The position numbers and the translations under genes are program-made. This document shows positions 38,731-63,117 of a stretch of DNA of 64,000 nucleotides, piece by piece. Each line of letters begins with the position of its first letter. The first letter of the stretch is position 1. The stretch comes from Patescibacteria group bacterium (GTDB lineage Bacteria > Patescibacteriota > Patescibacteriia > Patescibacteriales > UBA12465). The notes below the pieces were generated by a model. That model did not search any database and had not been told where the DNA came from. It saw only the letters and a program-made list of their open reading frames with translations. The stretch is from assembly GCA_049318005.1 (NCBI GenBank), contig JBMOHE010000001.1:117995-181994 (forward strand), written 5' to 3'.

Positions 38731-38755
38731 AGATTTTTGATTATTTATTATTTTA

Positions 38756-46600: not shown

Positions 46601-47350
46601 GGCAAATTTAAATTTAAAATCAGGGTTAGTTATTCCGATACCAATATAATTATCAGAATTTATAGTAAATGCGGAAACACTTTGGCTACTTTGTTTAACA
46701 GAAGAACCCGCCGCTACGCCTGAATCATAATCTAATTTAAGAATAGAAGCTGACCCGACGCAGCTATTAGAACAAGCATCAAAATAAGTACCACTTACAG
46801 GACACGACTTAACTGAGACACAAGCCGCTTCAGAGACAGTACTGGTGTTTCTTGATGAACAAATTAAATAACCTAAGCCATTAGCGCCACCAGTAGTAGC
46901 ACAGGAAGAACAGGTGTCGTAAGTGCCGCAAGCTGCAACATAATTAGAACAGTTAGGGATAGCCGTTCCGGGATGAGTTGCTTGGCAAGTTACATTTACT
47001 GGCGAGCTTGAATAACCACTGTCACATTTAACGTAAGTGCCCGCCGTACAAGACGTACAAGTTCCACAATTATCCCAAGCCGAACAACCAGGTAAGGCTT
47101 GCAACTGAGGGGCAGTTTGACCCTCCGAAGTACAGCGATTACTTATAGCAGCTTGAGTATTACAATGCTCAGACAAAGAACCAGTATCTCCAGTACAATA
47201 ATAACTTCCTGAGTCACAAGAATATCCAGATCCATTTCCAGAGCTACAAACTAAAGCCAAGGCTGATATCGGATTATATGCAAAAACAAAAAAACCAAAT
47301 AAAAAAATGGAAAAAGATATTCTTATGTAATTTCGAAACATGTCTTTCAT
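43610..47350 (-). CDS. Secreted giant fibre-like protein (1246 aa): Cys-rich N-terminal region plus GIGTTNP-type repeats, with a unique C-terminus.
   Basis: Signal peptide; a roughly 200-aa N-terminal region with more than 30 Cys; repeated ..GNVGIGTTNP/..GIGVTNP..KL.. modules; the shared junction motif SGDTINVGGGQIGGL..TQINDDQAVSL.YL. Confidence 0.75.
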   Translation of the reverse strand: MKDMFRNYIRISFSIFLFGFFVFAYNPISALALVCSSGNGSGYSCDSGSYYCTGDTGSLSEHCNTQAAISNRCTSEGQTAPQLQALPGCSAWDNCGTCTSCTAGTYVKCDSGYSSSPVNVTCQATHPGTAIPNCSNYVAACGTYDTCSSCATTGGANGLGYLICSSRNTSTVSEAACVSVKSCPVSGTYFDACSNSCVGSASILKLDYDSGVAAGSSVKQSSQSVSAFTINSDNYIGIGITNPDFKFKFATTSNQVINVAGGQVGGLNSVQVSRDQAVSLAYLQDNYNATTTSFWKGSLAGDMWNANTGSVIIGTSTSNNTIIKSGANNDVLNILYQASSRVLLSPNALSAFGSNGVAATGGIRLGEGTNYSYLVGNGTNLLLNPLAGNVGIGTTNPRVKLEVGTNDGVNASIVAGNIIEIAGLSEVAQAADITITAGTLVNGGPTAKNGSGYWNIPSFPATITFNTRGWWTYAGMSFTAANVHNYPDGGGAKLPASFLVEASSDGVTWTTVDDVTGYTSALYYKSSVISGSGKWVRITATAPQSGETTAKLANVQIFNGQRSGKGPFSLSAEGNAVFLGGKVGIGAIKPLSQLGVLGNASIGATYGAIAAPTSGLIVEGSVGIGVTDPKTKLHTSGDITFGALTVGSIHSGQLLGSVSLSPVSVRQTFGTDGTGWQYRIAKDTAGVIADLFTIQDNGYVGIGSTTPNTKLSISQASSGDTINVGGGQIGGLSLTQINDDQAVSLYYLKNNYNSTTTKFWAGSLTGDMWSANSGNIGIGVTNPLSKLQIGATTTAATITPLALSLGGTYSSVAGANPKLKLFDNGVNFYGMGVSANQFDFMAPANAGYSWNINGIEKVRIDSNGDFRLVGGYLRTSVGGSSGSNLIAISADAWKTRTNFWLPEVWSTTASITIVDAPAGAVVPTGKVHQFDTTSGGGYVIDQLIPIDPNVTYYGKIWAAKVSGTGVFYAGYTAYDKDGVAIAGNGGTRGYFIASAANPASTGAWYYNKIKGEGTNSNQFPVGTRYIKPLIIVNFNAAGVMQVGGFEISDRAFEYNSSLDFSTNGTSKLLIDSSGYVGIGTTTPGVRLSLSGGAWDAISGGWTGEILRVNGGRLTGLNLTPITNDEAVSKSYLDSNFNPKYSELTLSHRSVVGAGGTITASSTDSIIGYTSLSGANTLNIPNCTAAGKFYIVVDESGSASSINKIIIDPVGDSKILGVATFELKSAHNSVYIFCNRTEAGVVSWFVL

Positions 47351-47385: not shown

Positions 47386-50300
47386 TTACTTACAGCAGGC
47401 AAAAGCACGATTAATATCGCAACTTCCTAGCTGACCACTTCCCTTGTTCAAATCCTTCTTCCAAAAAGTTCCAAGCTTCTCAGACCCAGTTGATCCGGCA
47501 ATCCTAATCGTTCTCGCCTCGCAATCATTTGCACTCGCTAAATATCCTGGAGGGCCATTGAATATCCAAACATCCGCATCTGGCATGGTGACGCTTTTGG
47601 CAATTGAATTAAGCATTTCATAAGAGAAACAAACATGTGAGCCAGAGAATTTTGTTGAACAAATAGTATTAGCCTCAACATATCCAGGTGTTCCATCGGC
47701 TGCGCCAAGACCATTCATACCGTTATAAGTTGAGGTGCTCTTACCGACATAAACAGCACTACTTGATAAAGCATAGTTGGCTTGCAAATAACCGAGTGGG
47801 ACCGCTTGATCATTATTTACTGGTGTTAAATCAAGCCCGCCAATTTTACCACCACCAACATTTATAACCTCGCTACTACTTGAACTAATACTTAATCTTA
47901 CCGAAGGACTTGAAGAAGAAATGCCAACGAAACCATTTTGATTTATTCTTAAAAAGTCTAAAGTATCACTATTATTTCTGATTATAAATGGGGAGTAATC
48001 AATACTACTAATAATTCTTAGACCCTCGGTGCTTACAGGGGGATTAATTTGAAGTTTAGCGGCTGGGCTAGTTGTGCCGATGCCGACGTTACCAGTACTT
48101 AAAATACGTAGTCGCTCGGTATTACTCGTTCCTAAAATTAAATCACCGGCATTAAAAGTTCCTATTGCTAATTTTTTTGACGCATCTGCAACACCTTGAC
48201 CGAATATGGCGTGCGTATTTGTTCTACTTATTCCAAATATAGTTCCAGGAGCCGTTGAACCGAAAGAGTTAACAACAAGATAATCATCTTGATTATTTCT
48301 TGCCATTAATCTAACTTGTCCGGAAGCATTAAAATTTTTGAAATCCATTCCTGATATTTTATCAGTATTTGCGGCCACCCCTAAAGCTATGTCCCAAGTT
48401 GCCGCATCACCAGGCTGAGCATAAGCCTGATCTGACTGCTGTAATGTAAATTTAACCGCTGGATTGGTCGTTCCAATTCCGACGTTGCCGCCATCATTTT
48501 TAATTGCAAGAGAACTGCCATATAGTAGCAAGGAGTTAGCCTCATCATAAACTGCTAAACGGGCGTCATTTAAAGCATAGTATAAACCGAATTCTTCGGC
48601 CGAAGATGTTTGCCCATTTCCTAAATAAGCAGAATAATCCCCATCATTAACACTACTCTTAAAGAAAGCTACTGTTCCGGCGCTACTTTCAACTTGAAGC
48701 TTCGTGTTTGGATTAGTTGTCCCAATCCCAACGTTTCCAGTATTTGCACTATAAATATTTCCAGATAAGCTGCCAGCCCAAAGTTTTGTTGAAGTTGCAT
48801 TATAGTTAGCTTGAAGATAGCCGAGTGGAACGGCGTGATCAGGATTAATAGGCGTCAAATCAAGCCCCCCAATTCTACCGCCACTAACGGTAATTGTGTC
48901 TCCGGAAAGTGCCTGCGCGACCGTTAATTTAATCAAGGGGCTAGTCGAGCCAATACCAACGTTACCAGCTGAAGTAATTCTCATTCTCTCAAAAGTATAT
49001 GGATCAACTGAATTATTAGACGTTTCAAAGGCCAAGAAACCAGCATTATTATTGCTCGTTGCTACTTCTTTTTTACCATGAATAGTTGCAAATGGAATTA
49101 AATTTGCAGCGCCAGTAATATACCGGCCACCTAAAACAATAGAACCGCCAACATTAATATTAGGCTCGTCTGTCGTTGAAATAAATAAGTTCCCTCTTTG
49201 ACTAACTCCAACTCCGATCAACTTATTAGTTCCTCTAATATCTAAATTAGTAGATGGACTTAATATACCAATACCAACGTTACCAGCCACATATAAATTT
49301 CTTCCCAAATCTAAATCTTGTGAAAAACTAACACCGCGAAGTCCAGTATTATTTAAATCAACTAATTGATAATAAGTTGAGGTCGCAGCGTTATACGTAG
49401 GAGTTGCGGCTAACTGAGCACCGTTAGTTCCATAAACCGTAATCGGAGTTGGGGTTGTGGCAGTATTAACATAAACATCTACATAGGCATTATAATTTCC
49501 AGGCGTGCTATCAGCGGTAATTCTGATTTTAGTAATTGGACCAGTATTATAACTAAAAGATCTAAGAACATTAATAGATCCAACGCTATCATTTGAGCCA
49601 ATATAAGAACGTATATTATAGTTAAATTCTAATTTCTGCTGAGTATTATCCATTCCAGCGCCAATATATATAGTTCCTCCGTTTGATCCAGTTGGGCCAA
49701 CAATTCTATACCAACCGACCCCAGAAGTCGGGTTAATAGTGGTTTTGCTAGAATAAGCCTGACCATTTAATTTTATATTTCCATTAACTTCTAATTTTTC
49801 TTGCGGATCAGTTGTTCCAATTCCTAAATTTCCACTACCGCCCTTAATAGTTAAGAAATCTAACCCAGCGGTAACATCACGTATATTTAAATAACCATTA
49901 TTCGCATAAAAATTCCAAGTTCTATTGCCAGCTTCAGCAAAACTCAAAAAATTATTAACTCCAGCCGAACCATAAATTTGAAGTTTCGCGCCCGGAGTAG
50001 TTGTTCCTATCCCAATATTTCCAGTATTCATGCTATACATATGACTCGCGAGCGAACCTGCCCAGAATTTTGTTGAAGTTGCGTTATAGTTAGCTTGAAG
50101 ATATCCAAGCGGAACAGCTTGATCAGGATTAAAAGGAGTAGAGGCAAGACCACCGATTTGGCCACCGCCAACATTAATCGTGTCTCCAGAGACAGCTTGA
50201 GAAATGCTTAATTTATAGCTCGGAGTAGTTGAGCCAATTCCAACAAAACCAGCCGCTGATATTCTCATTTTTTCATCACTCGCAGAAACAACGCTCGTAT

Positions 50301-52263
50301 CAAAAACATTACGATTTAAAAATACTATATCACCAACACCGCTACCAGCAGTCCTAACACTACCGATAAATTGTTTAGGATAAAGTCCGCCGTCACCGGT
50401 CGCATAAGTTGAAAGTCTTATACCAGCAAAAATACCAGCTAACCCAGCGCCATTAGTAATAGTTAGGCCGTTGGTTGTCGTCCCCGTACTAGCGTCCGCA
50501 TAATACATATCAAGCGCGGAAGCTGGACTAGTAACCGACAAGCCAACAGTGCCGCCAACATATAGTTTTGCACTTCCCGGGTCAGCGCCGATACCAAAAT
50601 TACCAGAATCTCTCTGAATTGTAACTTTGGTGCTTAAAGCGCCACCATTTTTTGATTGGATTAAAAAATTATTTGTCGCCGCTCCATCATAAAATAAACT
50701 AAAACCATATGGAACACCTGTAACATTTTCATACATTTGGAAACCGGAGGCCTGATTAATATCTGATTCCAACCTAACAAAGGCATTTGTCGCTGAATAT
50801 ACATGAAGTTTTTCGAGTGGATTAGTCGTTCCAATTCCCACATTACCAATATTATCGATACGCATTTTCTCAGCCAAAGTTCCAGTACTTATTGTATTAA
50901 ATAAAATAGCACCATTTTCACTGCCACTAGTTATCCCAGTTGTTTGACCAATAATTGAAGCATAAGTTTTTGCTCCAGAAACACTATTTAATGCATTAAA
51001 TCTGAACCCAATAGTATTGGCTGTATTAGCGGTGGCGTTATTAAAAAACTCCACTATTGGGTTACCGGCACTTGGTAAAAACACCAACCCGCCAACCCAA
51101 TTTGAATAAATTTTAGCTTGATAATCAATACCACTATTTCTACCTTTGAGAATGATGCCGCTATTTGAGCTAGTTGCTAGTGATCTGATTGTTAAATATT
51201 CATCGCCAGTGTTTCCAACGATGTCTAGTTTTGTACTAGGATTAGCAGTTCCAATACCAATATTCCCTCCCTTAAGAATTCTCATTCTCTCGGTATTATT
51301 TGTTTTAAACAAAACATCATAATTATTAGTTGAACCCATCCAGGAAGTATCGTTAGACAAATCATTTCCCGACAATAGCCAACCTAAAGATGTGCTTGCA
51401 CCTTTATATAAGAAGTTACTATCAACATAATATTTTGATACCGCCTGATCGTTATTTAAAGGTGTTAAAGATAAGCCGCCGATTTTGCCAGTTCCAACAT
51501 TTAAAACTTCATCCGAACTAGAACTAAGATGTAATTTATAAGCAGGCTCAGAAGTTCCAATACCTATATATCCAGATAGAGGAATGTATAAGGAAGGTGT
51601 GCCGCTCTGTAGAACAGCAGTTCCAACGGCAGCTTTATTTACCGAGCTGTTTCCAAGTTGAAGCATAGGCAAGGAGCCATCGCAAGCACAAGTATTTTCG
51701 TTCCAGGTTTGATATGAAGTACAAGTATTAGCCGAGCAGACGCCCGTTCCAATACATAAATTACCGCTTGAACAACTTGAACATTTATTCGTAGCGCAGT
51801 TCATAGTTGCGCAATTAGCGGTTTTAGCTAATGTACAATTAAAATTAGGAGATGTTCCGCAAATCTGATGACCAGCATCGCAAGTAGCGCAGCTAATAGC
51901 CGGGCACGTCGTACAGGTTGCACAATTTGCGCCAGGTGTGCAAGTATTGCTCAAACAAGCTCCGCTACAATTAGCATATCCCGAATTACAATTAAGAGTC
52001 CAGGTATTACTAGAACAAGATAAAGTATAATAAGAAGAAGTCGTCGTGGCTGGTTTGTCAGTCCTTTCTGTGGCGCAACGAGCGCCTTCTATAGCCGCGC
52101 TTGTATTACAAAAACTTTCCGGAAAATTACATCTAATACCATCTATCATTGTATTGGTTTGGCAATTATTAATAGTAGTATCAGCCAAAACAGGCAATGC
52201 GAAAAATAAAGAATAAATTCCTATGATGAGCAGTATCGAAAATAATGATCTATATTTTTTCAT
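47386..52263 (-). CDS. Secreted giant fibre-like protein (1625 aa) with a Cys-rich N-terminus, tail-fibre-type repeats and the family C-terminal Cys domain.
   Basis: Signal peptide; N-terminal region with more than 35 Cys; about 12 GN(I/V)GIGT modules; C-terminus ANTICSTKFSGSHVCFSYEMLNSI...WIFNGPPGY..ANDCEARTI...CDINRAFACCK. Confidence 0.75.
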   Translation of the reverse strand: MKKYRSLFSILLIIGIYSLFFALPVLADTTINNCQTNTMIDGIRCNFPESFCNTSAAIEGARCATERTDKPATTTSSYYTLSCSSNTWTLNCNSGYANCSGACLSNTCTPGANCATCTTCPAISCATCDAGHQICGTSPNFNCTLAKTANCATMNCATNKCSSCSSGNLCIGTGVCSANTCTSYQTWNENTCACDGSLPMLQLGNSSVNKAAVGTAVLQSGTPSLYIPLSGYIGIGTSEPAYKLHLSSSSDEVLNVGTGKIGGLSLTPLNNDQAVSKYYVDSNFLYKGASTSLGWLLSGNDLSNDTSWMGSTNNYDVLFKTNNTERMRILKGGNIGIGTANPSTKLDIVGNTGDEYLTIRSLATSSNSGIILKGRNSGIDYQAKIYSNWVGGLVFLPSAGNPIVEFFNNATANTANTIGFRFNALNSVSGAKTYASIIGQTTGITSGSENGAILFNTISTGTLAEKMRIDNIGNVGIGTTNPLEKLHVYSATNAFVRLESDINQASGFQMYENVTGVPYGFSLFYDGAATNNFLIQSKNGGALSTKVTIQRDSGNFGIGADPGSAKLYVGGTVGLSVTSPASALDMYYADASTGTTTNGLTITNGAGLAGIFAGIRLSTYATGDGGLYPKQFIGSVRTAGSGVGDIVFLNRNVFDTSVVSASDEKMRISAAGFVGIGSTTPSYKLSISQAVSGDTINVGGGQIGGLASTPFNPDQAVPLGYLQANYNATSTKFWAGSLASHMYSMNTGNIGIGTTTPGAKLQIYGSAGVNNFLSFAEAGNRTWNFYANNGYLNIRDVTAGLDFLTIKGGSGNLGIGTTDPQEKLEVNGNIKLNGQAYSSKTTINPTSGVGWYRIVGPTGSNGGTIYIGAGMDNTQQKLEFNYNIRSYIGSNDSVGSINVLRSFSYNTGPITKIRITADSTPGNYNAYVDVYVNTATTPTPITVYGTNGAQLAATPTYNAATSTYYQLVDLNNTGLRGVSFSQDLDLGRNLYVAGNVGIGILSPSTNLDIRGTNKLIGVGVSQRGNLFISTTDEPNINVGGSIVLGGRYITGAANLIPFATIHGKKEVATSNNNAGFLAFETSNNSVDPYTFERMRITSAGNVGIGSTSPLIKLTVAQALSGDTITVSGGRIGGLDLTPINPDHAVPLGYLQANYNATSTKLWAGSLSGNIYSANTGNVGIGTTNPNTKLQVESSAGTVAFFKSSVNDGDYSAYLGNGQTSSAEEFGLYYALNDARLAVYDEANSLLLYGSSLAIKNDGGNVGIGTTNPAVKFTLQQSDQAYAQPGDAATWDIALGVAANTDKISGMDFKNFNASGQVRLMARNNQDDYLVVNSFGSTAPGTIFGISRTNTHAIFGQGVADASKKLAIGTFNAGDLILGTSNTERLRILSTGNVGIGTTSPAAKLQINPPVSTEGLRIISSIDYSPFIIRNNSDTLDFLRINQNGFVGISSSSPSVRLSISSSSSEVINVGGGKIGGLDLTPVNNDQAVPLGYLQANYALSSSAVYVGKSTSTYNGMNGLGAADGTPGYVEANTICSTKFSGSHVCFSYEMLNSIAKSVTMPDADVWIFNGPPGYLASANDCEARTIRIAGSTGSEKLGTFWKKDLNKGSGQLGSCDINRAFACCK
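47795..48095. repeat. Near-identical ~300-nt block shared with 59115-59415 (about 88% nucleotide identity) inside two different fibre genes.
   Basis: The segment encoding ...NPAAKLQINPPLSTEGLRI(I/V)SSIDYSPF(I/V)IRNNSDTLDF(L/F)RINQNGFVGISSSSPSVRLSISSSS... is almost identical in the 47386 and 58703 genes, while the flanking sequence diverges. Confidence 0.75.
51255..51535. repeat. Block of about 270 nt shared among three fibre genes (copies near 57480-57760 and 59725-59990).
   Basis: Encodes ...LTP(L/T)NND(Q/H)A(A/V)SKYYVD(N/S)NFL(S/Y)K(E/G)AS(S/T)SLGWLLSGN.L(T/S).D..W(L/M)GS(I/T)N.(Y/W)D..F(K/R)TNN(I/T)ERMRILKGGNIGIG in all three genes. Confidence 0.7.
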
Positions 52264-52292
52264 ATTAAAACTTTATCTTTATTTTATTATTT

Positions 52293-55200
52293 TTATTTAC
52301 AACAAGCAATATTTCTAGAATTATAACAACCAGTTAAAGACCCATAGCCTTGACCGTTAGTTGCATCTTTATGCCAGATAGCTCCGTAATCACTAGCGCC
52401 AGTACTAGTCCAGCCCATACAATCATTACTATTAGAAGTAAACCCTGGAGGTCCGTTACTAATCCACATGCTGCTAGTTGCAATAGTTAAAGTATCTGAA
52501 TTGATTGTGTTTAAAATTTCATAAGAAGTACAAACGTGGCTACTAGAAGCAACTGTATTGCTACAAATAGTATTGGCCGCTAAATATCCTCCCATGTTAC
52601 CTGTATATAGTTGAGTGGTTACACCTCTAAATTTAGGGACACTACTTATAGTACTAGTCGCCTCTGAAACATAAGATTCAAGGAATGATCTAGATACGGC
52701 CTCGTCAGGATATATAGTCGTTAAATTTAAGCCTCTTATTCTTCCTCCGTTAACTGTTAAAATATCGCCAGTCGTTCCGTCGAAACCAGTTATGCTAAGT
52801 CTGCGATCAGGAGTCGTTGTGCCTATTCCAATATAACCATTATAATCAATAGTCATGGCGGTATTGGTAATACCTGATGCCCAAGAATTGCTAGTTCCAA
52901 ACTGCAAAAGAGACCCGACCGGAGTTAACTTCATGGCAACTCTTGCAGCTGGATTTCTAAAACTAGTCTGAGCATAAGAAGTTTGGAAATCTATTGCTGA
53001 ATAATGATTAATAGTATTTTCTGTATATTCTAAATTTTGAAGACCTTTTGTAGTTCCAGTAAACGAAGCTAAACCAACACCCGAAACTTGAAGTTGCGAC
53101 AAAGGATTAGTTGTTCCAATTCCAACATTAGTTCCATTAACAGTTAAGACATCTGTCCAGCTAGGCAAATTTGGCGAAGCCTGTGAATCAGTTTGAATAG
53201 AGAAATAATTTCCATTACCAATTTGTAAATTAACTAAACCGGCTACTGCGCCACCGTAACTACGACGCCAAGTTGCCCCATCATTATAAGCTCCCCAAGT
53301 AATATAATTCATACCGCTTGAAGATTGTGATAATTTAGAATAATTTCCCCAAGCCATCTGATATCCGGAGCCATAAGTTCCACCGCCCAATAAACTAAGA
53401 GCCGGGGTTGAAGTTGATAATAAATTTCTAACATCTAATTTAGCGGCGATGTCGGTTGTTCCGATTCCAACGTTGCCGCTTGACAATATTCTCATCGCTT
53501 CAGTTCCTTGATTAACAAAGAATCCTAATCCTCCATTTGGGCCAGATTGGAACTCCATTAAATTAGAAGACATACCAATACCATATCGGCTACCAGAAGA
53601 TGCGCTAGTAAATAAATCCCACTTTAAATTATTAACGCTACCAGGCGTGCTATTGCCGTATGTCGAACCGAACGAAACATTTACGGGAGTTGCCAAGGCA
53701 GTAGAAGCACCAACACTTCCAAATGTAGCAATTCTACCTGTCGTGCCATAAACTTGAAATTTAACATCAGGCGTCGTTGTCCCAATACCGACGTTATTCG
53801 CTCCATTATTACTATAAATATTTCCACTCTGGCTTCCTCCCCAAAGAGAAGTAGTTACCGCCGTGCTAGTCGAAGTATAGTTAGCCTCTAAATAACCAAG
53901 CGGAACGGCCATATCTTTTCTAGTCGGAGTTGAAGCTAGTCCGCCAATTTGACCACCACCAACGTTTATAACTTCAATAGTAGTAGTCGCAAAACTTAAT
54001 TTTATCGAAGGCGTGCTTGAACCGATACCAACACTTCCGTTATCAGAAACAGATAAAACTGGCGTTAAATATGTTGATGGATTAGCGGTATAGCCCAAAT
54101 TAATAATACTGTTTATATTACCAGCCGCACTACCGCCGCTTATACCCATGTAACTAGGCCCTGAATTATTAAAGACAAATCTATTTACATTAGAAGATCC
54201 TGTGCCATATAAATAGCTAGCCATACTTACCTGGCCCGCACTACTAACGGTAAATTGGTTATTATTTCCAACTGTTAATAACTGCGATGGTGTTGTTGTT
54301 CCAATTCCTACATTACCATTCATTAAGGCTGACAAAACATCTAAATTACTGGATTCATGTCTAAGGCGGAATGTTGTGTCATTAACAGAAGGAATTCCAA
54401 CAGCGAATCCCCACTTCCCGTTCGTAGTGTAAGAATCATCTATAATTAATTTTGTGCCAGTCGTTGGAACCGCGATATGAAGTCTTGCCCCAGGTGTAGT
54501 CGTGCCAATTCCAACATTAGAAGTATTTGCACTATAAATATTTCCGGACAAATTACCTGCCCAGAAACTAGTTGAGGTGGGATTATAGTTAGCCTGAAGA
54601 TAACCAAGAGAAACAGCTTGATCACTGTTTAAAGGAACAGACGCAAGGCCGCCAATCTGACCACCGCCAACATTTATCACTTCAATAGTAGTGGTCGCAA
54701 AACTTAATTTATAATTCGGAGTACTTGAACCGATGCCAAAACGACCATCATTTTTAAATACAAAGTTAGTTGGAACGGCATTGCCGCCAGTGCCAACATA
54801 AAAGCTACCAGGCGTAATCAAAGACATGTCGTTTGAATTACCAGGAGTAGTCACCCAGTAGCCAGCGCCAATTTTACCAGCATATGTGCCATTATTATAG
54901 TATTCAGAATAATAATTAGAAATTCTCATAATGCCATTAACATCAAGCAGCCTGCTTGGCGTTGTAGTTCCAATTCCGACGTTGCCCTGGCCATTAGGCA
55001 TTAATACTAAATTTGACCAAGTACTGGGATTTTTTGTAGCGGAAATCCAGCCATATCCCGGCGTAGTAGCAGTACTATAACCAATTTGCACTTTGGATGT
55101 TCCAGCACCAATAAAGGCTACCCCCGAGTATGAATCGGATAATGGCTCATCGTCGCCCGATACATGAAATTTAGCCTGAGGAGTTGTCGTCCCTATCCCG

Positions 55201-58200
55201 ACGTTGCCATTAGCTAAAATTCGTAACGCCTCAGTTGTCCCCGGAGATAAAATAAGATTAGTGCTTGAATATAAAGTCGTTCCGCTAGAATCAACATTTA
55301 AAGCACCCGCTCTTGTGCCATCTCCGAAGGCCAAGCCATTACTAACGCTATAACCAGTTGAACCTACTGAACCAATTTGTAATCTACTTGCTGGAGTAGT
55401 CGTCCCAATTCCAACATTCAAAGTGTTTGCACTATAAATATTTCCGCCCAAAGACCCGCCCCAAAAGCTAGACGACGTTGCATTATAATTAGCCTGAAGA
55501 TAACCAAGAGGAACAGCCATATCGCTTCTAGTTGGAGTTGAAGCAAGGCCTCCAATCTGACCGCCGCCAACATTTATTACTTCCACAGTACTTGTACCAA
55601 AACTTAATTTAACCGAAGGAGTAGTCGAGCCAATACCTATATTTGTACCATTATCATATAGAACGCTATTAGCCAAAGATGACCCGTTCCATTTCACAAC
55701 CGAACTAGTCGATAAATTATTAGTTAAATTTCCTGAATGCCACAATTTAAAAGTTGTTCCCCAAGAACCATCTGGGCCAGTTCTAAAATATAATTCTGGT
55801 CGGCTCCAAGGAGTATTGTTACCAATAATTTGCCAACTATAATATGAAGAATTCCAACCTCTAATAGTGATCGCTCCTGATTCTGCTCCAAATTCTGGCA
55901 AAACTATAATTCCCGCTGTCAACTTTGCGAAAGGAGAACTACTCGGAGCAGAGCCGACAGAACCAAATCCCAAATAATTAGCAGTTAAATTAGTAACCGT
56001 TGTAGAAGAAATAACTGAAAATGGGGCGGTGCCAGCTGCAACAGTAGAAATCAACTGGTTACTAGTTCTAATTGAGCCAGTTACATCCAATTTAACACCT
56101 GGGTTAGTTGTTCCGATTCCGACGTTGCCATCATTTTTTATAAATAATCTTGTATTTATAGCCCCGAGTAATGGTGCTTTTTGTTGAATAGCAAATGAAT
56201 TATCTGACTTAGATGATACCAATCGATAACCTTCCGCATAATACCAGCTAGCATCATCAAAGTAATAGCCTGGCGCATTACTTAAATCTAATGATGCGGT
56301 TGTACTTGCAATACCAATATTTGATTTTTGAACTTCTAACCCGTATTTTGGATTAGTCGTCCCAACTCCAACATTGGAAGTATTAGCACTATAAATATTT
56401 CCGCCTAAAGATCCTCCCCAAAAACTAGACGACGTTGCGCTATAATTATCTTTAAGATATCCAAGTGGAACGGCCATATCGTTTCTAGTCGGAGTTGAAG
56501 CCAGTCCGCCAATCTGACCACCGCCAAGATTCATAACTTCGCTAGTAGTAGTTGCAAAACTTAATTTATAATTCGGAGTACTTGAACCGATACCAACATA
56601 ACCAGTGCTTTGAACGCTAAATAAATTAGTATTATTATAATCTATTTGGAAAAAGTTAGTTGGAGGGGTTATGCTGCCAGAGTTATTTGTTACTTGAAAT
56701 TTATTTGTAATAAAAGCCAAACGATTAAAAGTAGATCCCGAATAAGCAGAAAAGGCCGTATTACCGCCACTTCTACCTACCTGGAAATAAGACGCGACCA
56801 CAGAATCTGACCAAGTTTGATTCCAATTATCTAAACCTCTAAAAATATTTTGGCCGTTGGCTTGTAAATTAATTTCAGTTGAGTTTGGAGCAGAAATAGA
56901 TGGGCCGCTAGGATCAAATAAAAGTTTGGCAGTGCTACTAGCGACTTCGAACTTTGCGCCTGGCGCCGTTGTTCCAATTCCTAATCTTCCGGTCTCAGTT
57001 AATCTCATTCTCTCGCCAGAACTAACTCCGGAATCATTAGTATTAAAGGTCATGTAATTACTATTTGCATTGTTTCCGCCTTGCCAAAATTGAATATTAG
57101 CTCCACCGCCAGTCCAGTTCGTATTATTGTAAGGAATTCCAATTGCTCTATAATTACCGCTGCCAAGAGTGCCTGATCCAGCGGCAAGCATAATATTCCC
57201 TTCTACCTGAAGTTTTGCCAAAGGATTGGTTGTGCCTATTCCAACATTACCAGTAACTGGATTTAAAAGAAGGTTTGTTCCGTTGCCAACTAAGTAACTA
57301 AAATTAGTTCCATCACCTAATCTAATACCAGCAGACCCATTAGAACCATAAGCCGTTCCAAAGGCGCTATAAGCATTAGGAGAAAGCAAAACACGAGAAC
57401 TAGATTGGTATAAAATATTTAAAACATCATTATCGTTCCCACTTTTTATAATTGTATTATTAGAAGTACTCGTTCCAATTCCGATGTTCCCTCCCTTAAG
57501 AATTCTCATTCTCTCGATATTATTTGTTCTAAACGACACATCCCAATCATTAATTGACCCTAACCAATTATTATCGCTAGTTAAAGTATTGCCCGATAAT
57601 AACCAACCTAGAGATGAGCTTGCTTCTTTCGATAAGAAGTTATTATCAACATAGTATTTAGAAGCAGCTTGATCATTATTTAAAGGTGTTAAATCAAGTC
57701 CACCAATTTTACCGCCACCAATATTTATAACTTCGTCTGAACTTGAACTAATATGTAATTTAAAATTTGGATTAGTAATTCCAACGCCAATATAACCAGA
57801 TGAAGGAATAGTTAAGGATGGTAGAGCTAAACTAGAATTAAATAAAAAGTTATCTGTGCGTAAAGAATCATAACCAATCTTTAATGAGTTAGCTGTTCCC
57901 GTACAATAGTTAGAAGCTGGGGCGCAAGGATCAAAAGTTTGACCGCTTGGACAGGTTTTATTGGCGATACAAATATTTGAGCTAGAGCATTTTGTATAAT
58001 TTGAGTTCTTACAAGTTGAACAAAGATTAGTTGAACATGATCCGCCGCTAGAGAGTAAAATTGCGCAATTATTAACATCCGTTTTACAAGAATCATTTTC
58101 TGCACAAAGAGCGTTTCCGGCCGTACAGCTTGTACAAGGTTGATTAGCTGCGCACTGATTATAGCTTGCACAATTTGTAACTGCACCTGCGGCGCGATTA

Positions 58201-58664
58201 GCAAGACAACTGGCTCCACTATTACAAAGAGTAAAATTACTATTCGTACAAGTCTGACAAGTATTTGTAGTTGAACAATCAGCTACGTAGGTTAAACAAT
58301 TAGCGATCGGAGATGTTCCGCTATAGGCCGGGACACAACTTGGCGGAGTACTATAGGTTCCGCAAAGTGTGTCCGCGCCATCACTCCTAGTTATACAAGA
58401 CGAGCAAACGCCGCAAGTATCAACCGACGCGCAACCATTTATATTAATTGTTGCTGGAACTAATCCAGTACAAAGACTAGTCGCTAAACATTTAGCAGCA
58501 CCAGATCCAGGAGCGTTGGTACAATACCAATCGTTTCCGCAACCGATACCAGTTCCACTATCATGCTTACATGTATACTCCAAAGCAGCCGCCTGATTAG
58601 AAGCAGCTAAAAAAATACCGAATATCAGCGAGAAAAGAAATAGAGTTGTGCGCTTTGATAACAT
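52293..58664 (-). CDS. Secreted giant fibre-like protein (2123 aa), the largest member; Cys-rich N-terminus, more than 15 repeat modules, and the family C-terminal Cys domain.
   Basis: Signal peptide MLSKRTTLFLFSLIFGIFLAASNQAAA; repeats of INVGGGQIGGLASTPTR(S/K)DMAVPLGYL(Q/E)ANY; C-terminus ANTICSNTVASSSHVCTSYEILNTI...WISNGPPGF..NDCMGWT...CYNSRNIACCK. Confidence 0.75.
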   Translation of the reverse strand: MLSKRTTLFLFSLIFGIFLAASNQAAALEYTCKHDSGTGIGCGNDWYCTNAPGSGAAKCLATSLCTGLVPATININGCASVDTCGVCSSCITRSDGADTLCGTYSTPPSCVPAYSGTSPIANCLTYVADCSTTNTCQTCTNSNFTLCNSGASCLANRAAGAVTNCASYNQCAANQPCTSCTAGNALCAENDSCKTDVNNCAILLSSGGSCSTNLCSTCKNSNYTKCSSSNICIANKTCPSGQTFDPCAPASNYCTGTANSLKIGYDSLRTDNFLFNSSLALPSLTIPSSGYIGVGITNPNFKLHISSSSDEVINIGGGKIGGLDLTPLNNDQAASKYYVDNNFLSKEASSSLGWLLSGNTLTSDNNWLGSINDWDVSFRTNNIERMRILKGGNIGIGTSTSNNTIIKSGNDNDVLNILYQSSSRVLLSPNAYSAFGTAYGSNGSAGIRLGDGTNFSYLVGNGTNLLLNPVTGNVGIGTTNPLAKLQVEGNIMLAAGSGTLGSGNYRAIGIPYNNTNWTGGGANIQFWQGGNNANSNYMTFNTNDSGVSSGERMRLTETGRLGIGTTAPGAKFEVASSTAKLLFDPSGPSISAPNSTEINLQANGQNIFRGLDNWNQTWSDSVVASYFQVGRSGGNTAFSAYSGSTFNRLAFITNKFQVTNNSGSITPPTNFFQIDYNNTNLFSVQSTGYVGIGSSTPNYKLSFATTTSEVMNLGGGQIGGLASTPTRNDMAVPLGYLKDNYSATSSSFWGGSLGGNIYSANTSNVGVGTTNPKYGLEVQKSNIGIASTTASLDLSNAPGYYFDDASWYYAEGYRLVSSKSDNSFAIQQKAPLLGAINTRLFIKNDGNVGIGTTNPGVKLDVTGSIRTSNQLISTVAAGTAPFSVISSTTVTNLTANYLGFGSVGSAPSSSPFAKLTAGIIVLPEFGAESGAITIRGWNSSYYSWQIIGNNTPWSRPELYFRTGPDGSWGTTFKLWHSGNLTNNLSTSSVVKWNGSSLANSVLYDNGTNIGIGSTTPSVKLSFGTSTVEVINVGGGQIGGLASTPTRSDMAVPLGYLQANYNATSSSFWGGSLGGNIYSANTLNVGIGTTTPASRLQIGSVGSTGYSVSNGLAFGDGTRAGALNVDSSGTTLYSSTNLILSPGTTEALRILANGNVGIGTTTPQAKFHVSGDDEPLSDSYSGVAFIGAGTSKVQIGYSTATTPGYGWISATKNPSTWSNLVLMPNGQGNVGIGTTTPSRLLDVNGIMRISNYYSEYYNNGTYAGKIGAGYWVTTPGNSNDMSLITPGSFYVGTGGNAVPTNFVFKNDGRFGIGSSTPNYKLSFATTTIEVINVGGGQIGGLASVPLNSDQAVSLGYLQANYNPTSTSFWAGNLSGNIYSANTSNVGIGTTTPGARLHIAVPTTGTKLIIDDSYTTNGKWGFAVGIPSVNDTTFRLRHESSNLDVLSALMNGNVGIGTTTPSQLLTVGNNNQFTVSSAGQVSMASYLYGTGSSNVNRFVFNNSGPSYMGISGGSAAGNINSIINLGYTANPSTYLTPVLSVSDNGSVGIGSSTPSIKLSFATTTIEVINVGGGQIGGLASTPTRKDMAVPLGYLEANYTSTSTAVTTSLWGGSQSGNIYSNNGANNVGIGTTTPDVKFQVYGTTGRIATFGSVGASTALATPVNVSFGSTYGNSTPGSVNNLKWDLFTSASSGSRYGIGMSSNLMEFQSGPNGGLGFFVNQGTEAMRILSSGNVGIGTTDIAAKLDVRNLLSTSTPALSLLGGGTYGSGYQMAWGNYSKLSQSSSGMNYITWGAYNDGATWRRSYGGAVAGLVNLQIGNGNYFSIQTDSQASPNLPSWTDVLTVNGTNVGIGTTNPLSQLQVSGVGLASFTGTTKGLQNLEYTENTINHYSAIDFQTSYAQTSFRNPAARVAMKLTPVGSLLQFGTSNSWASGITNTAMTIDYNGYIGIGTTTPDRRLSITGFDGTTGDILTVNGGRIRGLNLTTIYPDEAVSRSFLESYVSEATSTISSVPKFRGVTTQLYTGNMGGYLAANTICSNTVASSSHVCTSYEILNTINSDTLTIATSSMWISNGPPGFTSNSNDCMGWTSTGASDYGAIWHKDATNGQGYGSLTGCYNSRNIACCK
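57480..57760. repeat. Copy 2 of the ~270-nt shared block.
   Basis: See 51255-51535. Confidence 0.7.
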
Positions 58665-58702
58665 GTATTTATTTTATAATAAAATATATAAAAACTAATA
58701 TA

Positions 58703-60673
58703 TTAATTACAACAAGCGAGCCCCATAAGCTTATCACAAGTTCGAAGTAGCCCTCTCCCCTTAGTGTATCCTAAATCCGTACCTTCCCAGTATGTTCCAT
58801 AATTAGGAAAGGCTTCAGTTGTTGTATCCAATGTTCTTGCGTCGCAATCATTAGCACTAGTTGTGTATCCCGGAGGACCATTAACTATCCAGGCATTTCC
58901 TTTTGGCATAGTTAATCCAGCCGCAATAGAATTTAACATTTCAAAAGACGTACAAACATGAGCCCCGCTACCATACTGAGTACTGCAAATTGTATTAGCT
59001 CCATCATACCCTCCCTGATTTCCATCATAAGCTAAGGTTGTCGTACCAACATATTTTGAGACACTTGAACTTGAAACGACTGCTTTAGTTGCAAAATTAG
59101 AATCAACGTAATATTTAGAGGTTGCCTGATCATTGTTTAAAGGAGTTAAACTTAGCCCGCCGATTGAGCCCCCTCCAACGTTTATTACTTCCGCGCTGCT
59201 TGAACTAATACTTAATCTAACCGAAGGGCTTGAAGAAGAAATACCAACAAAACCATTTTGATTTATTCTAAAGAAATCTAAAGTGTCGCTATTATTTCTA
59301 ATTACAAATGGGGAGTAATCAATACTACTTACAATTCTTAAACCCTCAGTACTTAATGGAGGGTTGATTTGAAGTTTAGCGGCTGGGGTTGTTGTACCGA
59401 TACCAACGTTGCCGCCGTTAAGATAGCTCCAACCATTGGCGTTTATATACACGTTTGTTAAATTTGAAGCATTTTGTAAAGCTAAAATATCGGCACTTAA
59501 AGCCGAATAATTAGTTCGACTATTAGAAAAATCATAAGTATAAAGATAATTTTTCACTCCACCACCAAACAAATAAGTTGAGCCACTAACTGGGGATATA
59601 CGTAGTTGCCCAGAGGCGTTAGAAATAAAATCTACCGAAGTAGAAGCATTGCCATCGTAAGTTAACCTAATTTTATTATCCGTGCCAGAAATTGTTAATT
59701 TAGCAGCTGGATTAGTCGCTCCAATCCCAATATTTCCGCCCTTAAGAATTCTCATTCTTTCTATGTTGTTTGTTTTAAATAAAAAATCATAATTATTAAT
59801 TGAACCTAACCAGGAAGTATCACTAGTTAAAGTATTCCCCGATAATAACCATCCCAAAGACGAGCTCGCTTCTTTTGATAAAAAGTTATTATCAACATAA
59901 TATTTTGAAGCCGCATGGTCGTTATTAGTCGGCGTTAAAGCTAGTCCTCCAATATAACCCCCTCGAACATCAATAAGCTGATTACTCGAAGAAGCAAATT
60001 GAAATTTATAAGACGGGCTAGTTGTGCCGATTCCAATATAATTATCTGGACTAATATTAAAAGTTGGGATAAAAAATAAACTTTGCTTAACGGTCGCGCC
60101 TGACGTTAATGAACCTGAATCATAATCTAATTTAAGACTTGGAGCCGAGCCTACACATTCACAAGTTGATTCGTTCCATGTTTGATAACTAGCGCAAGTA
60201 ACATTCTGACATTCATAAGCATTAGTATTTGATTTACATAACTTCAAGCTGCCACTACAAGTTTTACATTTTTGATCACCGCAATAATTATAATCCGTAC
60301 AATTAGCAACCGTAATCTGATGAGTAGCTTTTTCCGTACAAGCAGTAGCTGGAGTATTTGGATATGTCGCTGAGCAAAAAGCATAAGTGCTAATACAGGC
60401 AGTACAGGAACCGCAAGCATCAATCGTAGAACAAGGAGAAACAACGCTAATACTATTAGACGGACAAAAAGCTGAAGTCATCACCGCTCCAGTCCTACAA
60501 GTCCCACCGCAATAATATTGCTGAGACGGCTCACTCGCACAAGCAACCGCTGAAGGACTGGCCGTTGGACAATAAGTTAAAGCCTGCGCCGAAGAAGCGG
60601 AGATTACTCCGATGAAAATAAAGATTAAAGATAGGGGAAGTAAAAACTTCTTCATAATAATTATCGACAACAC
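58703..60673 (-). CDS. Secreted fibre-like protein (656 aa) of the same family, with the C-terminal Cys domain.
   Basis: Signal peptide; Cys-rich N-terminus; blocks almost identical to parts of the 47386 and 52293 genes; C-terminus ANTICSTQYGSGAHVCTSFEMLNSI...WIVNGPPGY..ANDCDARTL...CDKLMGLACCN. Confidence 0.75.
   Translation of the reverse strand: MLSIIIMKKFLLPLSLIFIFIGVISASSAQALTYCPTASPSAVACASEPSQQYYCGGTCRTGAVMTSAFCPSNSISVVSPCSTIDACGSCTACISTYAFCSATYPNTPATACTEKATHQITVANCTDYNYCGDQKCKTCSGSLKLCKSNTNAYECQNVTCASYQTWNESTCECVGSAPSLKLDYDSGSLTSGATVKQSLFFIPTFNISPDNYIGIGTTSPSYKFQFASSSNQLIDVRGGYIGGLALTPTNNDHAASKYYVDNNFLSKEASSSLGWLLSGNTLTSDTSWLGSINNYDFLFKTNNIERMRILKGGNIGIGATNPAAKLTISGTDNKIRLTYDGNASTSVDFISNASGQLRISPVSGSTYLFGGGVKNYLYTYDFSNSRTNYSALSADILALQNASNLTNVYINANGWSYLNGGNVGIGTTTPAAKLQINPPLSTEGLRIVSSIDYSPFVIRNNSDTLDFFRINQNGFVGISSSSPSVRLSISSSSAEVINVGGGSIGGLSLTPLNNDQATSKYYVDSNFATKAVVSSSSVSKYVGTTTLAYDGNQGGYDGANTICSTQYGSGAHVCTSFEMLNSIAAGLTMPKGNAWIVNGPPGYTTSANDCDARTLDTTTEAFPNYGTYWEGTDLGYTKGRGLLRTCDKLMGLACCN
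59115..59415. repeat. Second copy of the ~300-nt near-identical block (partner 47795-48095).
   Basis: See partner; the alignment runs without gaps (constant offset 11320). Confidence 0.75.
59725..59990. repeat. Copy 3 of the ~270-nt shared block.
   Basis: See 51255-51535. Confidence 0.7.
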
Positions 60674-63117
60674 GCTAACTTAGCGGCTTCATTACAATGT
60701 TTAACTAATCCACGTCCTTCTGGGTATTGGCCGGTAGGTCCCTGCCAAATAGCCCCATAGGTAATGGTTGATTCGTTACTCGTTCTACCATCACAATCAT
60801 TAGCAATTGCTAAATACCCCGGAGGGCCAGTAAATATCCAAACGTCACTAGTAGGAATAGTACTACTCGCAACTAAAACCGTATTTAACATTTCAACTGA
60901 CGAACAAACATGATAGCTTGAAGAAATTGCTTTGCAGAGACCATGAGCAACCGTGTAACCAGTTCCTGCGGCGCCATTGTTACCAGCATAAGACACGGCC
61001 GTTGAAGTTACATATTTTCCTATTCCCGCCCCACTCACACCGCTATTTAAATACGACTCAAGATAAGCTTTATTAACAACATCTTCATCGCTAATAATAG
61101 AGCTTGTCGCAACCCGCATTTTTATTAAACCAAGTACATCAAGTTTTGAAACCGGAGTAGTTGTTCCTATGCCGACATTACCAGCGCCAACCACACCGTT
61201 ATAAATATTTCCGTTAATGGTTCCGTTCCAAAGTGAGGAGCTAGCCAAAGTAACTGTGTTTGAATAATTGCTCTTAAGATAATAAAGTGAAACCGCCTGA
61301 TCATCGTTGACCTGAGTAAGAGAAAGTCCACCAATCTGACCGCCGCCAACGTTAATAACGTCTGCCGTAGTTGAAGAAAGACTTAATTTATAATTTGGGG
61401 TACTTGAGCCGATTCCGACGTTACCGCCACCGCCTAAAATTAACTTTTGGCTAGCTGGAGTTACACTAGTTACGCCATATATTAAAGCCGAGCTTCTCCC
61501 AAGAGCCTCAGTTGTTCTATCTAAACTGTCAATTATTAATGAGTTCGAACCAGTTTCATATCTTCCTGCAGTATGCCCAATAAAAATATTATTAGTTCCG
61601 GTTGTTAAACTTGCGCCAGTAAATGCACCTAATAAAGTATTATAGCCCCCAGTTAATCCGGCAACAGAATTGTAACCAGCTCTATAACCAATTGCTGTGT
61701 TATAAGCTGAATTTGTATTTATTAACTGCAAGGCGTTCGTGCCTAAAGCCGTATTATTCATAACGCCTGTTTTTGCGGATGAATTATAACCAGAAAGATA
61801 ACCAATAAAAATATTGCTACCGCCAGAACTATTTGTTGAGGCATGATAACCAATATTAACAGAAGCTACGCTGACGCCGGTAAATTGTCCGCCATATGTT
61901 CCAATAATTACATTTGCGCCACCGGTAGTCCCGTTGGCAGCTTGATAACCAATAACGGTATTATCATTCGCCACGGTAAAACTTTGACCAGCCGAGGAAC
62001 CGATTAGAGTGCTTCTTCCGCCTGTCGTTACCGCACCACCAGCGCCAATACCAAAATATGTAGCATTAGCATCTAAAGTCATCGCTTTAATACCCCCGAC
62101 CGTAATATTATTTGAGGTGGTATTCGGCTTAAAATATACAATGCCCGATGAACCGCTTAAAGATGAATCGGCAGCCGTATCAACATAAGTTGTATTGATA
62201 TTGTTGGCAATAGTCGTTAATAAATATTCCTCCCATCTTCCCCCGCCTGCTTTTACGCGATATATTTTTCGGCCCGTAACCCGAGAATCACTAGAAACGG
62301 GAATAGTTAAAGTAACAGTATTATTTCCAGCCGTGGTAGTAATTTGTGTCGCCGAATAAACTATGTGTGTCTCACCAAGAGCGGTTATAAAAGTAACTCC
62401 ATACCAATGAGCGCCAGTATCAACTGATCCGCCAGCACTTACTACGCCAGTCGGAGCAATTGGGTCAGGTACGGGATAAATATCAAAACCCATCCCAGAA
62501 CGTACTGCGCTAACAGTAGTAGTTCCTATAACATCTAATTTGTAGACTGGCGCTGTTGTTCCAATTCCAACATTCCCTAGCCCATTACTTCCATTCCAAA
62601 TATTTCCATTTAAAATTCCTCCCCAAAGAGTAGTCGAACTAGCACTATAGTTTGACTGAAGGTAGCCAAGTGAAACTGCTTGATCAATATCAACCGGAAC
62701 AGAAGCAAGCCCACCAAGCTGTCCGCCATTAAGATTAAGAACTTCGCCCGTTCCGCCGTCAATATTTAATCTTATTCCGCCGGTCGTGGTTGTTCCTATT
62801 CCGACATATCCAGAAAAGTTACCAATGAAGTTTGTCGCCCTAATTGTTCCATTAACATCAAGCCTAGTTCCGTCAACCGGAGCAGTCGTATTAATACCGA
62901 CCGGCCCAACTAAACTAACCGGCAACCAGGTATTAACAAAGTCAACGAGTAAGCCATTCCATTCGACCGCTTCTAAAGTTCCGCTATGAGGCTTATCATA
63001 AGTCGAAGTTGAGTTTACCGCTGAGGCATTTTTAGCAGTAAATATAAATAAAAAAGACGCGCAAATAACAAAAGCGCTTAAAATATTTTTTATTTTTTGT
63101 CCTCGTTTAAGGAACAT
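60661..63117 (-). CDS. Secreted fibre-like protein (818 aa) of the same family; first gene of the array.
   Basis: Signal peptide; GNVGIGTT modules; C-terminus HGLCKAISSSYHVCSSVEMLNTV...WIFTGPPGY..ANDCDGRTS...CNEAAKLACCR. Overlaps the next gene by 13 nt. Confidence 0.75.
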   Translation of the reverse strand: MFLKRGQKIKNILSAFVICASFLFIFTAKNASAVNSTSTYDKPHSGTLEAVEWNGLLVDFVNTWLPVSLVGPVGINTTAPVDGTRLDVNGTIRATNFIGNFSGYVGIGTTTTGGIRLNIDGGTGEVLNLNGGQLGGLASVPVDIDQAVSLGYLQSNYSASSTTLWGGILNGNIWNGSNGLGNVGIGTTAPVYKLDVIGTTTVSAVRSGMGFDIYPVPDPIAPTGVVSAGGSVDTGAHWYGVTFITALGETHIVYSATQITTTAGNNTVTLTIPVSSDSRVTGRKIYRVKAGGGRWEEYLLTTIANNINTTYVDTAADSSLSGSSGIVYFKPNTTSNNITVGGIKAMTLDANATYFGIGAGGAVTTGGRSTLIGSSAGQSFTVANDNTVIGYQAANGTTGGANVIIGTYGGQFTGVSVASVNIGYHASTNSSGGSNIFIGYLSGYNSSAKTGVMNNTALGTNALQLINTNSAYNTAIGYRAGYNSVAGLTGGYNTLLGAFTGASLTTGTNNIFIGHTAGRYETGSNSLIIDSLDRTTEALGRSSALIYGVTSVTPASQKLILGGGGNVGIGSSTPNYKLSLSSTTADVINVGGGQIGGLSLTQVNDDQAVSLYYLKSNYSNTVTLASSSLWNGTINGNIYNGVVGAGNVGIGTTTPVSKLDVLGLIKMRVATSSIISDEDVVNKAYLESYLNSGVSGAGIGKYVTSTAVSYAGNNGAAGTGYTVAHGLCKAISSSYHVCSSVEMLNTVLVASSTIPTSDVWIFTGPPGYLAIANDCDGRTSNESTITYGAIWQGPTGQYPEGRGLVKHCNEAAKLACCR

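Follow-up and report, generated by a model that had tools for sequence, protein, structure and literature searches.

The mosaic adhesive trimer (MAT) fibres of Bdellovibrio bacteriovorus are secreted, trimeric proteins with a conserved N-domain and diversified tips that fall into S74 and non-S74 subfamilies (Caulton et al. 2024, PMC10769870). In MAT members a signal peptide is followed by a conserved beta-rich domain some 130 amino acids (aa) long and a repetitive trimeric beta-prism shaft; the tips adopt TNF-like, C-type lectin and other folds, and the S74 chaperone domain is autoproteolytic (PMC10769870). The tip of one member, Bd2740, folds as a C-type lectin, with the snake-venom lectins 3UBU and 1V4L as its nearest homologues (PMC10769870). 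Here we describe an array of related fibre genes in a 64,000-nt stretch of DNA from a Patescibacteria group bacterium (GenBank assembly GCA_049318005.1, contig JBMOHE010000001.1, positions 117,995–181,994; the whole stretch is referred to as the window), and two blocks of sequence that recur among its paralogs. Seven tightly spaced open reading frames (ORFs) lie on the minus strand at 39–63 kb of the window, in the order G-F-E-D-C-B-A, with gaps of −13 to 67 nt. Our best explanation, which we hold as a whole and with reasonable confidence, is that the locus comprises six genes for secreted, probably trimeric fibre adhesins (A and C–G), set in tandem like an operon in a Patescibacteria chromosome, and that its shared modules reflect strong protein constraint together with old copying or homogenization between paralogs, that is, slow module exchange and not an active variation system.

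MAT fibres are the closest solved relatives of the array proteins. Protein D matched 8OND (Bd2133; E = 3e-7), 8OJN (1.7e-6) and 8OML (1.2e-3), protein F matched 8OND (1e-4) and protein A matched Bd2133 (2e-5); the likeness runs through a common ...ERMRI..GN.G.GT..P...L.V repeat. As in MAT, the fibres are secreted proteins with a signal peptide, and they form a multi-paralog repertoire with S74-ending (gene A) and non-S74 (D–G) members. The snake-venom lectins 3UBU and 1V4L are also among the Foldseek matches of the F tip, and in both settings the carrier bacterium must recognize other bacteria. There are differences as well. The host belongs to the Patescibacteria and is not a predatory Bdellovibrio, and the genes form one tight tandem array beside pilin-like genes. 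The array N-domain is Cys-rich and ∼200 aa long, with no similarity found to the Bdellovibrio chains (the solved fragments may omit the N-domain). The tips have six conserved Cys and end in ACCK, and Bd2740 is not among the Foldseek matches listed for them. Judged from sequence, the array fits most MAT features. The literature collection that we searched held no paper linking MAT-type fibres with Patescibacteria.

Three further systems bear on how fibre genes come to share segments. In the T-even phage genes gp37/gp38, segments are swapped between phage genomes at motifs, with a resulting change of host range that was shown experimentally (1998 work, discussed in PMC3157838). The likeness is that variable segments are interspersed with short, conserved glycine-rich motifs, at which blocks of homology stop, and that the fibre genes are mosaic; the difference is that here the exchange would be between tandem paralogs in a cellular chromosome, would be old, and involves motifs with only short exact matches. 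We regard motif-mediated swapping in gp37/gp38 as the closest mechanistic precedent. Concerted evolution of surface-protein repeats and tandem paralogs offers another comparison, since repeated modules within gene E, and modules in two related genomes (L001 and L004, below), are more alike within a gene or genome than between; homogenization in the array is, however, weak and old, with modules 73%–84% identical and most array modules of different types. Programmed antigenic-variation cassette systems include Neisseria pilE/pilS, Borrelia vlsE and the Mycoplasma MgPa repeats. The array resembles these in clustering related surface-protein sequences with common segments in one locus, but it has no silent donors, no single expression site and no near-identical tracts, and all of its copies are full genes.

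Discrete blocks shared among fibre paralogs

The fibre proteins are divided by a glycine-rich motif, which we call the GIGT motif ([VILM]G[IVL][GN], consensus GNVGIGTTxPxxKL). It occurs 57 times, with 12/7/12/18/3/5 copies in A/C/D/E/F/G, and cuts A and C–G into modules of ∼60–200 aa, the motif marking the module start. Both shared blocks follow this division. Block 1 is found in D (47803–48102, minus strand; D aa 1388–1487) and F (59123–59422, minus strand; F aa 418–517). Its start coincides exactly with the last GNVGIGTT motif of each protein (position 1393 in D, 423 in F), and it continues through a neck that ends ...GGLDLTPVNNDQA in D, or ...GGLxLTPxNNDQA for D and F together, just before the tip. 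Block 2 corresponds exactly to the module that opens the shaft in D, E and F; it is 102 aa long in each and free of indels. The D copy (51250–51600, minus strand; D aa 222–338) comprises module D233–334 with both flanking GIGT motifs, the E copy (57474–57824, minus strand; E aa 281–397) comprises module E292–393, and the F copy (59709–60037, minus strand) comprises module F213–314, with its high-identity part at 59709–59976.

The original prediction, made by eye from the sequence, placed block 1 at 47795–48095 and 59115–59415 with ∼88% identity. The block is real, gap-free and at a constant offset, but its identity is lower: 80.7% at those coordinates and 83.1% over 290 nt in the best BLASTN segment (47804–48093 vs. 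59124–59413, gap-free, E = 4e-82). A value of 88% is attained only in single 30-nt windows (0.87–0.90). Block 2 was likewise present in all three genes predicted to carry it, although the start given for the E copy, 57480, is off by 1 nt (it should be 57479). After correction of the offsets, identity over the predicted span is 79.4% (D–E), 74.8% (D–F) and 75.6% (E–F). The corresponding BLASTN segments, all gap-free, are 78.3% over 351 nt for D–E (51248–51598 vs. 57472–57822), 79.2% over 264 nt for E–F (57467–57730 vs. 59713–59976) and 80.4% over 235 nt for D–F (51239–51473 vs. 59709–59943). For comparison, the maximum identity among 200,000 random 280-nt gap-free comparisons inside the array was 0.62. 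Equally strong pairs exist elsewhere in the array, namely 55392–55637 vs. 56349–56594 within E (82%) and one C–E pair (79.5%); self-BLASTN found no extra copies of either block elsewhere in the window.

Sharp boundaries were borne out: at constant offset, 30-nt identity drops from 0.75–0.9 to the random level (mean 0.26) within ∼30 nt. Flanks had been described as 65%–70% similar, which holds for the tip side of block 1 (68%, with indels) but not for the other flanks, where no DNA similarity is detectable. The neighbouring modules differ too. Block 2 is followed by a module whose type and length are different in each gene (140 aa in D, 80 in E and 108 in F), and D and F also have unlike modules ahead of block 1; the D version (1261–1392) has a motif-bounded homologue with 68% aa identity in an unrelated metagenome contig, and none in F. 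Self-BLAST of the array thus returns discrete high-identity blocks and not uniform divergence, the by-eye identities having been overestimates. An assembly artefact does not explain the copies in E and F, since a Logan contig (L003, run SRR30676215) is 100% identical to window positions 57283–61592 over 4310 nt and includes block 1 of F as well as block 2 of both E and F. Overall, the shared blocks are real, discrete and module-sized, with a history of their own; they are ∼80% identical and old, and are kept chiefly by purifying selection. Mosaicism at a finer scale, within block 2, was considered and rejected, as three-way site patterns showed no heterogeneity from one end of the module to the other (chi-square p = 0.29).

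Synonymous divergence within and around the blocks

Codon alignments were compared for nonsynonymous and synonymous divergence (dN and dS) and for the number of identical codons at identical amino acids relative to the expectation from array codon usage. Block 1 (D–F) has an aa identity of 0.89, a dN of 0.07, a proportion of synonymous differences (pS) of 0.585 and a dS of 1.1, with identical synonymous codons at 52 of 89 positions against 36.9 expected (z 3.4); in its core, dS is 0.79 and the codon count 43 of 64 against 26.5 (z 4.4). Over the separate estimates, block 1 spans a dN of 0.06–0.07 and a dS of 1.0–1.1. Under codon-shuffled saturation, pS for block 1 is 0.756 ± 0.072. Its upstream flank has an aa identity of 0.33, a dN of 0.85, saturated dS and 26 of 59 identical codons (26.1 expected), and its tip-side flank an aa identity of 0.53, a dN of 0.40, saturated dS and 36 of 69 identical codons (32.4 expected); pS in these flanks is 0.69–0.71. 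In block 2, the D–E pair has an aa identity of 0.74, a dN of 0.175, a pS of 0.45 and a dS of 0.69, with 57 of 86 identical codons against 39.3 expected (z 4.2). The corresponding values are 0.68, 0.24, 0.56, 1.0 and 47 of 79 against 37.0 (z 2.5) for D–F, and 0.71, 0.20, 0.60, 1.2 and 48 of 83 against 37.3 (z 2.6) for E–F.

Across all blocks of at least 70 codons, pS is 0.40–0.60 and dS 0.57–1.2, and even the most similar and shortest piece, of 30 codons, has a dS of 0.37. Taken with a dN/dS of 0.06–0.25 inside the blocks, these values indicate that most of the DNA identity of the blocks comes from purifying selection at the protein level. At about one substitution per synonymous site between copies, nothing here is recent or near-identical, contrary to the original prediction; the most similar pair reaches only 83%.

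A modest synonymous excess, backed statistically, nevertheless sets the blocks apart from their surroundings. The residual unchanged fraction f, estimated with a two-class likelihood model, is 0.26–0.38 in blocks compared with 0–0.10 in flanks, and is 0.00–0.02 (n ∼100) in the homologous N-domain flanks. Likelihood-ratio comparisons of block and flank gave p = 0.002 (D–E), 0.006 (D–F) and 0.07 (E–F) for block 2, and, for block 1 against its two flanks, 0.015. Calibration of the expectation is good: of 856 module pairs compared, the 615 with less than 30% aa identity have an observed-to-expected ratio of 1.06, and control module pairs at 66%–73% aa identity show no synonymous excess. One such pair, D674–749 and E1009–1083, has 18 of 41 identical codons against 18.0 expected, despite 73% aa identity. 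The excess in the blocks probably means that they were copied or homogenized between paralogs after the flanking domains had diverged.

Repeats within gene E behave similarly. A 75-aa module (E1009–1083; 55416–55640, minus strand) has sister copies, also on the minus strand, at 56373–56597 (E690–764), 53793–54032 (E1545–1624) and ∼54497–54747, and more distant copies in gene D at 50017–50244 and 48733–48960. The E–E copies have 82% and 80% nucleotide identity with a dS of 0.58–0.62, and retain the synonymous signal.

Shared N-domains and predicted lectin-like tips

C, D, E and F have a common Cys-rich N-domain of ∼200 aa, which is present in Patescibacteria homologues at 33%–47% identity. The layout is clearest in F, where the N-domain is followed by the block 2 module, one variable module, the block 1 neck and the tip. 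When F is compared with 119 distant homologues, its two block sequences are found again in 102 and 116 of them and the variable module lying between the blocks in none, a comparison that is partly circular in that the homologues were retrieved by similarity to F. The first ∼65 aa of the block 1 neck are 50%–61% identical to necks that directly precede the equivalent tip domain in several other genomes.

The tip of F (∼aa 537–656; 58706–59065, minus strand) contains six Cys, and paralogous tips end D (∼47389–47763), E (52296–52646) and G (60664–61026), all on the minus strand. Alignment of these C-terminal domains, ∼120 aa in D–G, shows 20 invariant positions including the six Cys and the ending ACC[KNR]. 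An AlphaFold2 model of the F tip has a pLDDT of 75–92, and nearly all of its top Foldseek matches in the PDB are C-type lectin-like (probability ≤0.99, E 2e-3 to 0.1, TM ∼0.35–0.47), so that the D–G tips are predicted to have a C-type-lectin-like fold. A profile search with the tip domain found no sequence match in the PDB, and the AlphaFold2 monomer model of the shaft is of low confidence.

Module exchange in related loci

Using the tip-domain alignment as a degenerate-pattern scan, we recovered 20 genome loci, about half of them labelled as Patescibacteria-type metagenome-assembled genomes (MAGs; Falkowbacteria, Parcubacteria, Peregrinibacteria or "Patescibacteria group"). When compared with themselves, the relatives' loci contain blocks of ∼250–370 nt, mostly gap-free, at 78%–98% identity. 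Eight of the 10 high-identity pairs examined in other genomes are bounded by motifs. The most extreme case is L007 (MAG "bacterium isolate ELA643", contig JBAXTU010000001.1, 10382–19162), in which three adjacent paralogs have two common adjoining modules that are 100% identical. These blocks, of ∼300 nt and ∼270 nt, have a dS of 0.02–0.06 and random flanks, and both have GxVGIGTT motifs at their start as well as at their end. L007 could represent a very recent module exchange.

L001 and L004, two Falkowbacteria-like genomes, are syntenic at 72%–77% DNA identity. Copies of one module type are 73%–81% alike within a genome and 53%–60% between genomes, and module order differs between orthologous fibre genes; the pair is a case of concerted evolution with module turnover. 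In the comparison of L001 10010–13648 with L004 10413–13799, the N-domains and lectin-like tips of orthologous fibre genes are ∼77% identical in DNA, with the shaft modules between them reordered or replaced. For this pair of genomes, it is the shaft, and not the tip, that changes fastest.

A third genome, L027, whose LigA is 81% identical in amino acids to that of the window, shares housekeeping synteny with window positions 27381–39417 at 69%–76% DNA identity. Synteny stops at window position 39417 (L027 8978), inside the S74 domain of gene A, and past that point the fibre genes have unrelated DNA, which makes the fibre locus a hotspot of remodelling or replacement on the timescale of genus-level divergence. 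A scan of metagenomes for fibre homologues returned only single-module matches.

Searches for variation machinery

Several known routes to programmed variation were considered. Self-BLASTN of the window found no inverted repeats between fibre genes, no recombinase gene lies within the array, and there are no homopolymer tracts of 9 nt or more; on these grounds phase variation and an invertible shufflon were rejected. Positions 30869–32080 carry a reverse transcriptase gene (minus strand; 403 aa, RVT_1 E = 1e-15, with weak matches to group II intron and Drt2 models). Together with the lectin-like tips, this gene made a diversity-generating retroelement an appealing idea; in such an element a template repeat matches a variable region at the 3′ end of the target gene and differs from it at adenines. 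A diversity-generating retroelement was rejected, as BLASTN of 27–34 kb against the whole window (word size 7) found no template or variable repeat matching any fibre gene. As an observation in its own right, the reverse transcriptase gene lies directly upstream of genes for an ABC-membrane protein (29185–30894) and a two-domain PLD-like nuclease (27960–29195), and this three-gene cluster, which is conserved in L027, could be a defence-type retron or DRT-like module.

Weighing the explanations

Constraint without exchange is the alternative that has most to be said for it, though we think it unlikely. It holds that D, E and F arose by ancient whole-gene duplications and that the blocks are simply constrained modules, never exchanged between paralogs, the flanks having drifted or come under diversifying selection. 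The block dS of 0.6–1.2 and the low dN/dS are as it would have them, block motifs are conserved in distant genomes, block 1 differs from the tip domain in synonymous signal only at p = 0.099, and other module pairs hold 66%–73% aa identity with saturated synonymous sites, so that selection by itself can keep protein identity high here. What it leaves unexplained is the block synonymous excess (z 2.5–4.4), which is absent from the homologous N-domain flanks (p 0.002–0.07). The module that follows block 2 differs in type and length, and the D module before block 1 has no F homologue; such differing neighbours indicate that D, E and F are not colinear descendants. Exchange between paralogs and concerted evolution are, moreover, seen in relatives. 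The opposite proposal, made in the original prediction, was that recent gene conversion or segmental recombination actively generates fibre variants in the manner of antigenic-variation cassettes. The gap-free blocks with their sharp boundaries, the equally sized, near-identical blocks that paralogs share in other MAGs and the wholesale remodelling of the fibre locus between related genomes all lean its way, yet for this genome we consider it very improbable. The best-matching pair in the window reaches 83% identity and has a pS of 0.55–0.59, and the contig from SRR30676215 is 100% identical to the window over its full 4310 nt. That there are no silent cassettes, as the prediction itself had noted, was confirmed for the whole 64-kb window: none is silent or promoterless, and all block copies sit in intact ORFs with signal peptides on one strand. 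With no variation machinery found either, the analogy to antigenic-variation cassettes is not supported. The recombinational part of the proposal survives in altered form, since the modules, the synonymous codon excess and the relatives all give the blocks a history distinct from that of their flanks, though not a recent one. A phage or prophage tail-fibre cluster shaped by phage–phage mosaicism is scarcely credible, even though all six large fibre proteins match PHROG tail-fibre families (E down to 1e-45) and gene A, with its Peptidase_S74 domain, has a C-terminus that matches the phage S16 tail fibre (6F45, E = 8e-8). There was no DNA match in 50,697 phage records (INPHARED, megablast) and none in viral contigs, and no capsid, terminase or tail-tube match among the proteins scanned. 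The fibre proteins all have Sec-type signal peptides, the flanks hold housekeeping and pilus genes, fibre arrays follow minor-pilin-like genes in three genomes, and the housekeeping synteny with L027 extends right up to gene A.

The explanation that we favour, constraint combined with old module copying, runs as follows. The block modules are under strong purifying selection, as the divergence values show, next to modules that are of other types or evolve fast. They would have been copied or homogenized between paralogs after the flanks diverged, by duplication or by gene conversion confined to the homologous module, at a time corresponding to about one substitution per synonymous site, and the array as a whole would evolve through slow module-level exchange and turnover. 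We infer the old copying from the residual synonymous identity and from the relatives. Several observations weigh against this explanation. The contrast between block 1 and the tip domain alone is not significant (p = 0.099), poor alignment (33% aa identity) biases flank estimates toward expectation, and codon identity at conserved residues could reflect translational selection and not shared ancestry. Among the relatives, L007 could be a chimera of short-read MAG assembly. No close relative with an orthologous array was found, the array being replaced in the nearest syntenic genome, L027, and the best non-self homologue of F among 5.8 billion proteins is only 38% identical. Copies of the motif DNA in the window have a mean identity of 59% over 36 nt, and exact runs between them reach 22 nt at most, with a median of 5 nt and a 90th percentile of 11; that blocks end at motifs could simply be because homology stops there, or because selection favours whole modules. 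Motif-guided homologous recombination through RecA was considered as a specific route and is not demonstrated, exact motif matches being mostly 5–11 nt.

The array and its genomic setting

All genes of the array are on the minus strand. G (60661–63117) is the first, an 818-aa fibre with five GIGT motifs and the same tip type as D–F. It is followed by F (58703–60673), a short fibre of 656 aa with three motifs and a probable ATG start at 60655, and by E (52293–58664), the longest at 2123 aa, secreted, with 18 motifs, the internal 75-aa module repeats and the tip type of D. D (47386–52263) encodes a secreted fibre of 1625 aa with a signal peptide, Cys-rich N-domain, 12 GIGT-bounded modules and six-Cys C-type-lectin-like tip, and C (43610–47350) one of 1246 aa with a Cys-rich N-domain, seven motifs and a different C-terminus that lacks the lectin-like tip. 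A (39052–42783) encodes a secreted fibre of 1243 aa with 12 GIGT-bounded modules and a Peptidase_S74 intramolecular chaperone at its C-terminus (Pfam PF13884, E = 4e-17, aa 1149–1201); its true start is probably an ATG 13 codons in. C–G have no S74 match, and neither Pfam nor NCBIfam assigned them a family. The N-termini of A and C–G are basic, then hydrophobic, with an AxA-type site, resembling Sec-type signal peptides as judged by eye (for example, MKKYRSLFSILLIIGIYSLFFALPVLA|DTT in D). The remaining gene, B (42808–43542), sits in mid-array between C and A and encodes a protein of 244 aa that has a membrane anchor at its N-terminus and a cupredoxin-like domain at its C-terminus (Pfam Cupredoxin_1, E = 4e-9); a B-like gene of 224 aa occupies the equivalent place in L027.

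Directly upstream of G lies a PilX_N-like, minor-pilin-like gene (63267–63671, minus strand; Pfam PilX_N, E = 6e-5). Its region is syntenic with the pilin-like genes that precede the fibre arrays in L001 and L004 (62%–71% aa identity by tblastx). Cellular genes and elements elsewhere in the window include LigA, GatA, a tRNA-Ser, a SAM riboswitch, PilB, PilC, several N-methyl pilins and histidine kinases. The LigA has a match of 100% identity in an NCBI MAG labelled "Patescibacteria group bacterium"; the relatives that come next, Falkowbacteria among them, are at 78%–81%.

Other features of the window

A 1692-aa ORF (8833–13911, minus strand) without PHROGs or Pfam match adjoins a TSP3-repeat protein (6225–8339) and may be another giant surface protein. 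Between this ORF and an ABC-ATPase gene (14209–15663) is a 48-nt imperfect palindrome (14149–14196, 83% self-complementary), probably a terminator. The SAM riboswitch (RF00162, 52 bits; 4115–4218, plus strand) lies upstream of an ORF at 4299–5288. Two single-domain response-regulator paralogs, inverted and 23 kb apart (2898–3263, plus strand, and 26323–26703, minus strand), have 69% DNA identity over 216 nt (3004–3219 and 26376–26591); their mismatch types are unbiased, which makes them ordinary paralogs.

Implications for Patescibacteria

Modular fibre genes with conserved, motif-bounded blocks are already well known in fibre and adhesin evolution, and recent gene conversion as a mechanism of variation does not hold for this genome. 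The interest of the locus lies with its carrier. Type IV pili aside, little has been established on how Patescibacteria recognize and attach to host cells (PMC12206443). The genes described here give one Patescibacterium a repertoire of six secreted proteins that resemble phage tail fibres, with lectin-like tips, and the Bdellovibrio MAT fibres, their closest solved relatives, serve in prey recognition. Given its complete remodelling from one related genome to another, the fibre locus may be a candidate for determining host range. More tentatively, Patescibacteria, which are ultra-small and depend on hosts, might carry MAT-like adhesin arrays, linked to type IV pilus minor-pilin genes, as a host-recognition repertoire in which GNVGIGTT is both a structural joint and a module-swap junction, an idea that we regard as rather doubtful. 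If true, it would amount to built-in evolvability, caught in the act in the 100%-identical modules of L007 and leaving old traces in this window. The main value of the analysis is that it flags a MAT-like, pilin-linked and rapidly remodelled fibre-adhesin locus in a Patescibacteria genome.

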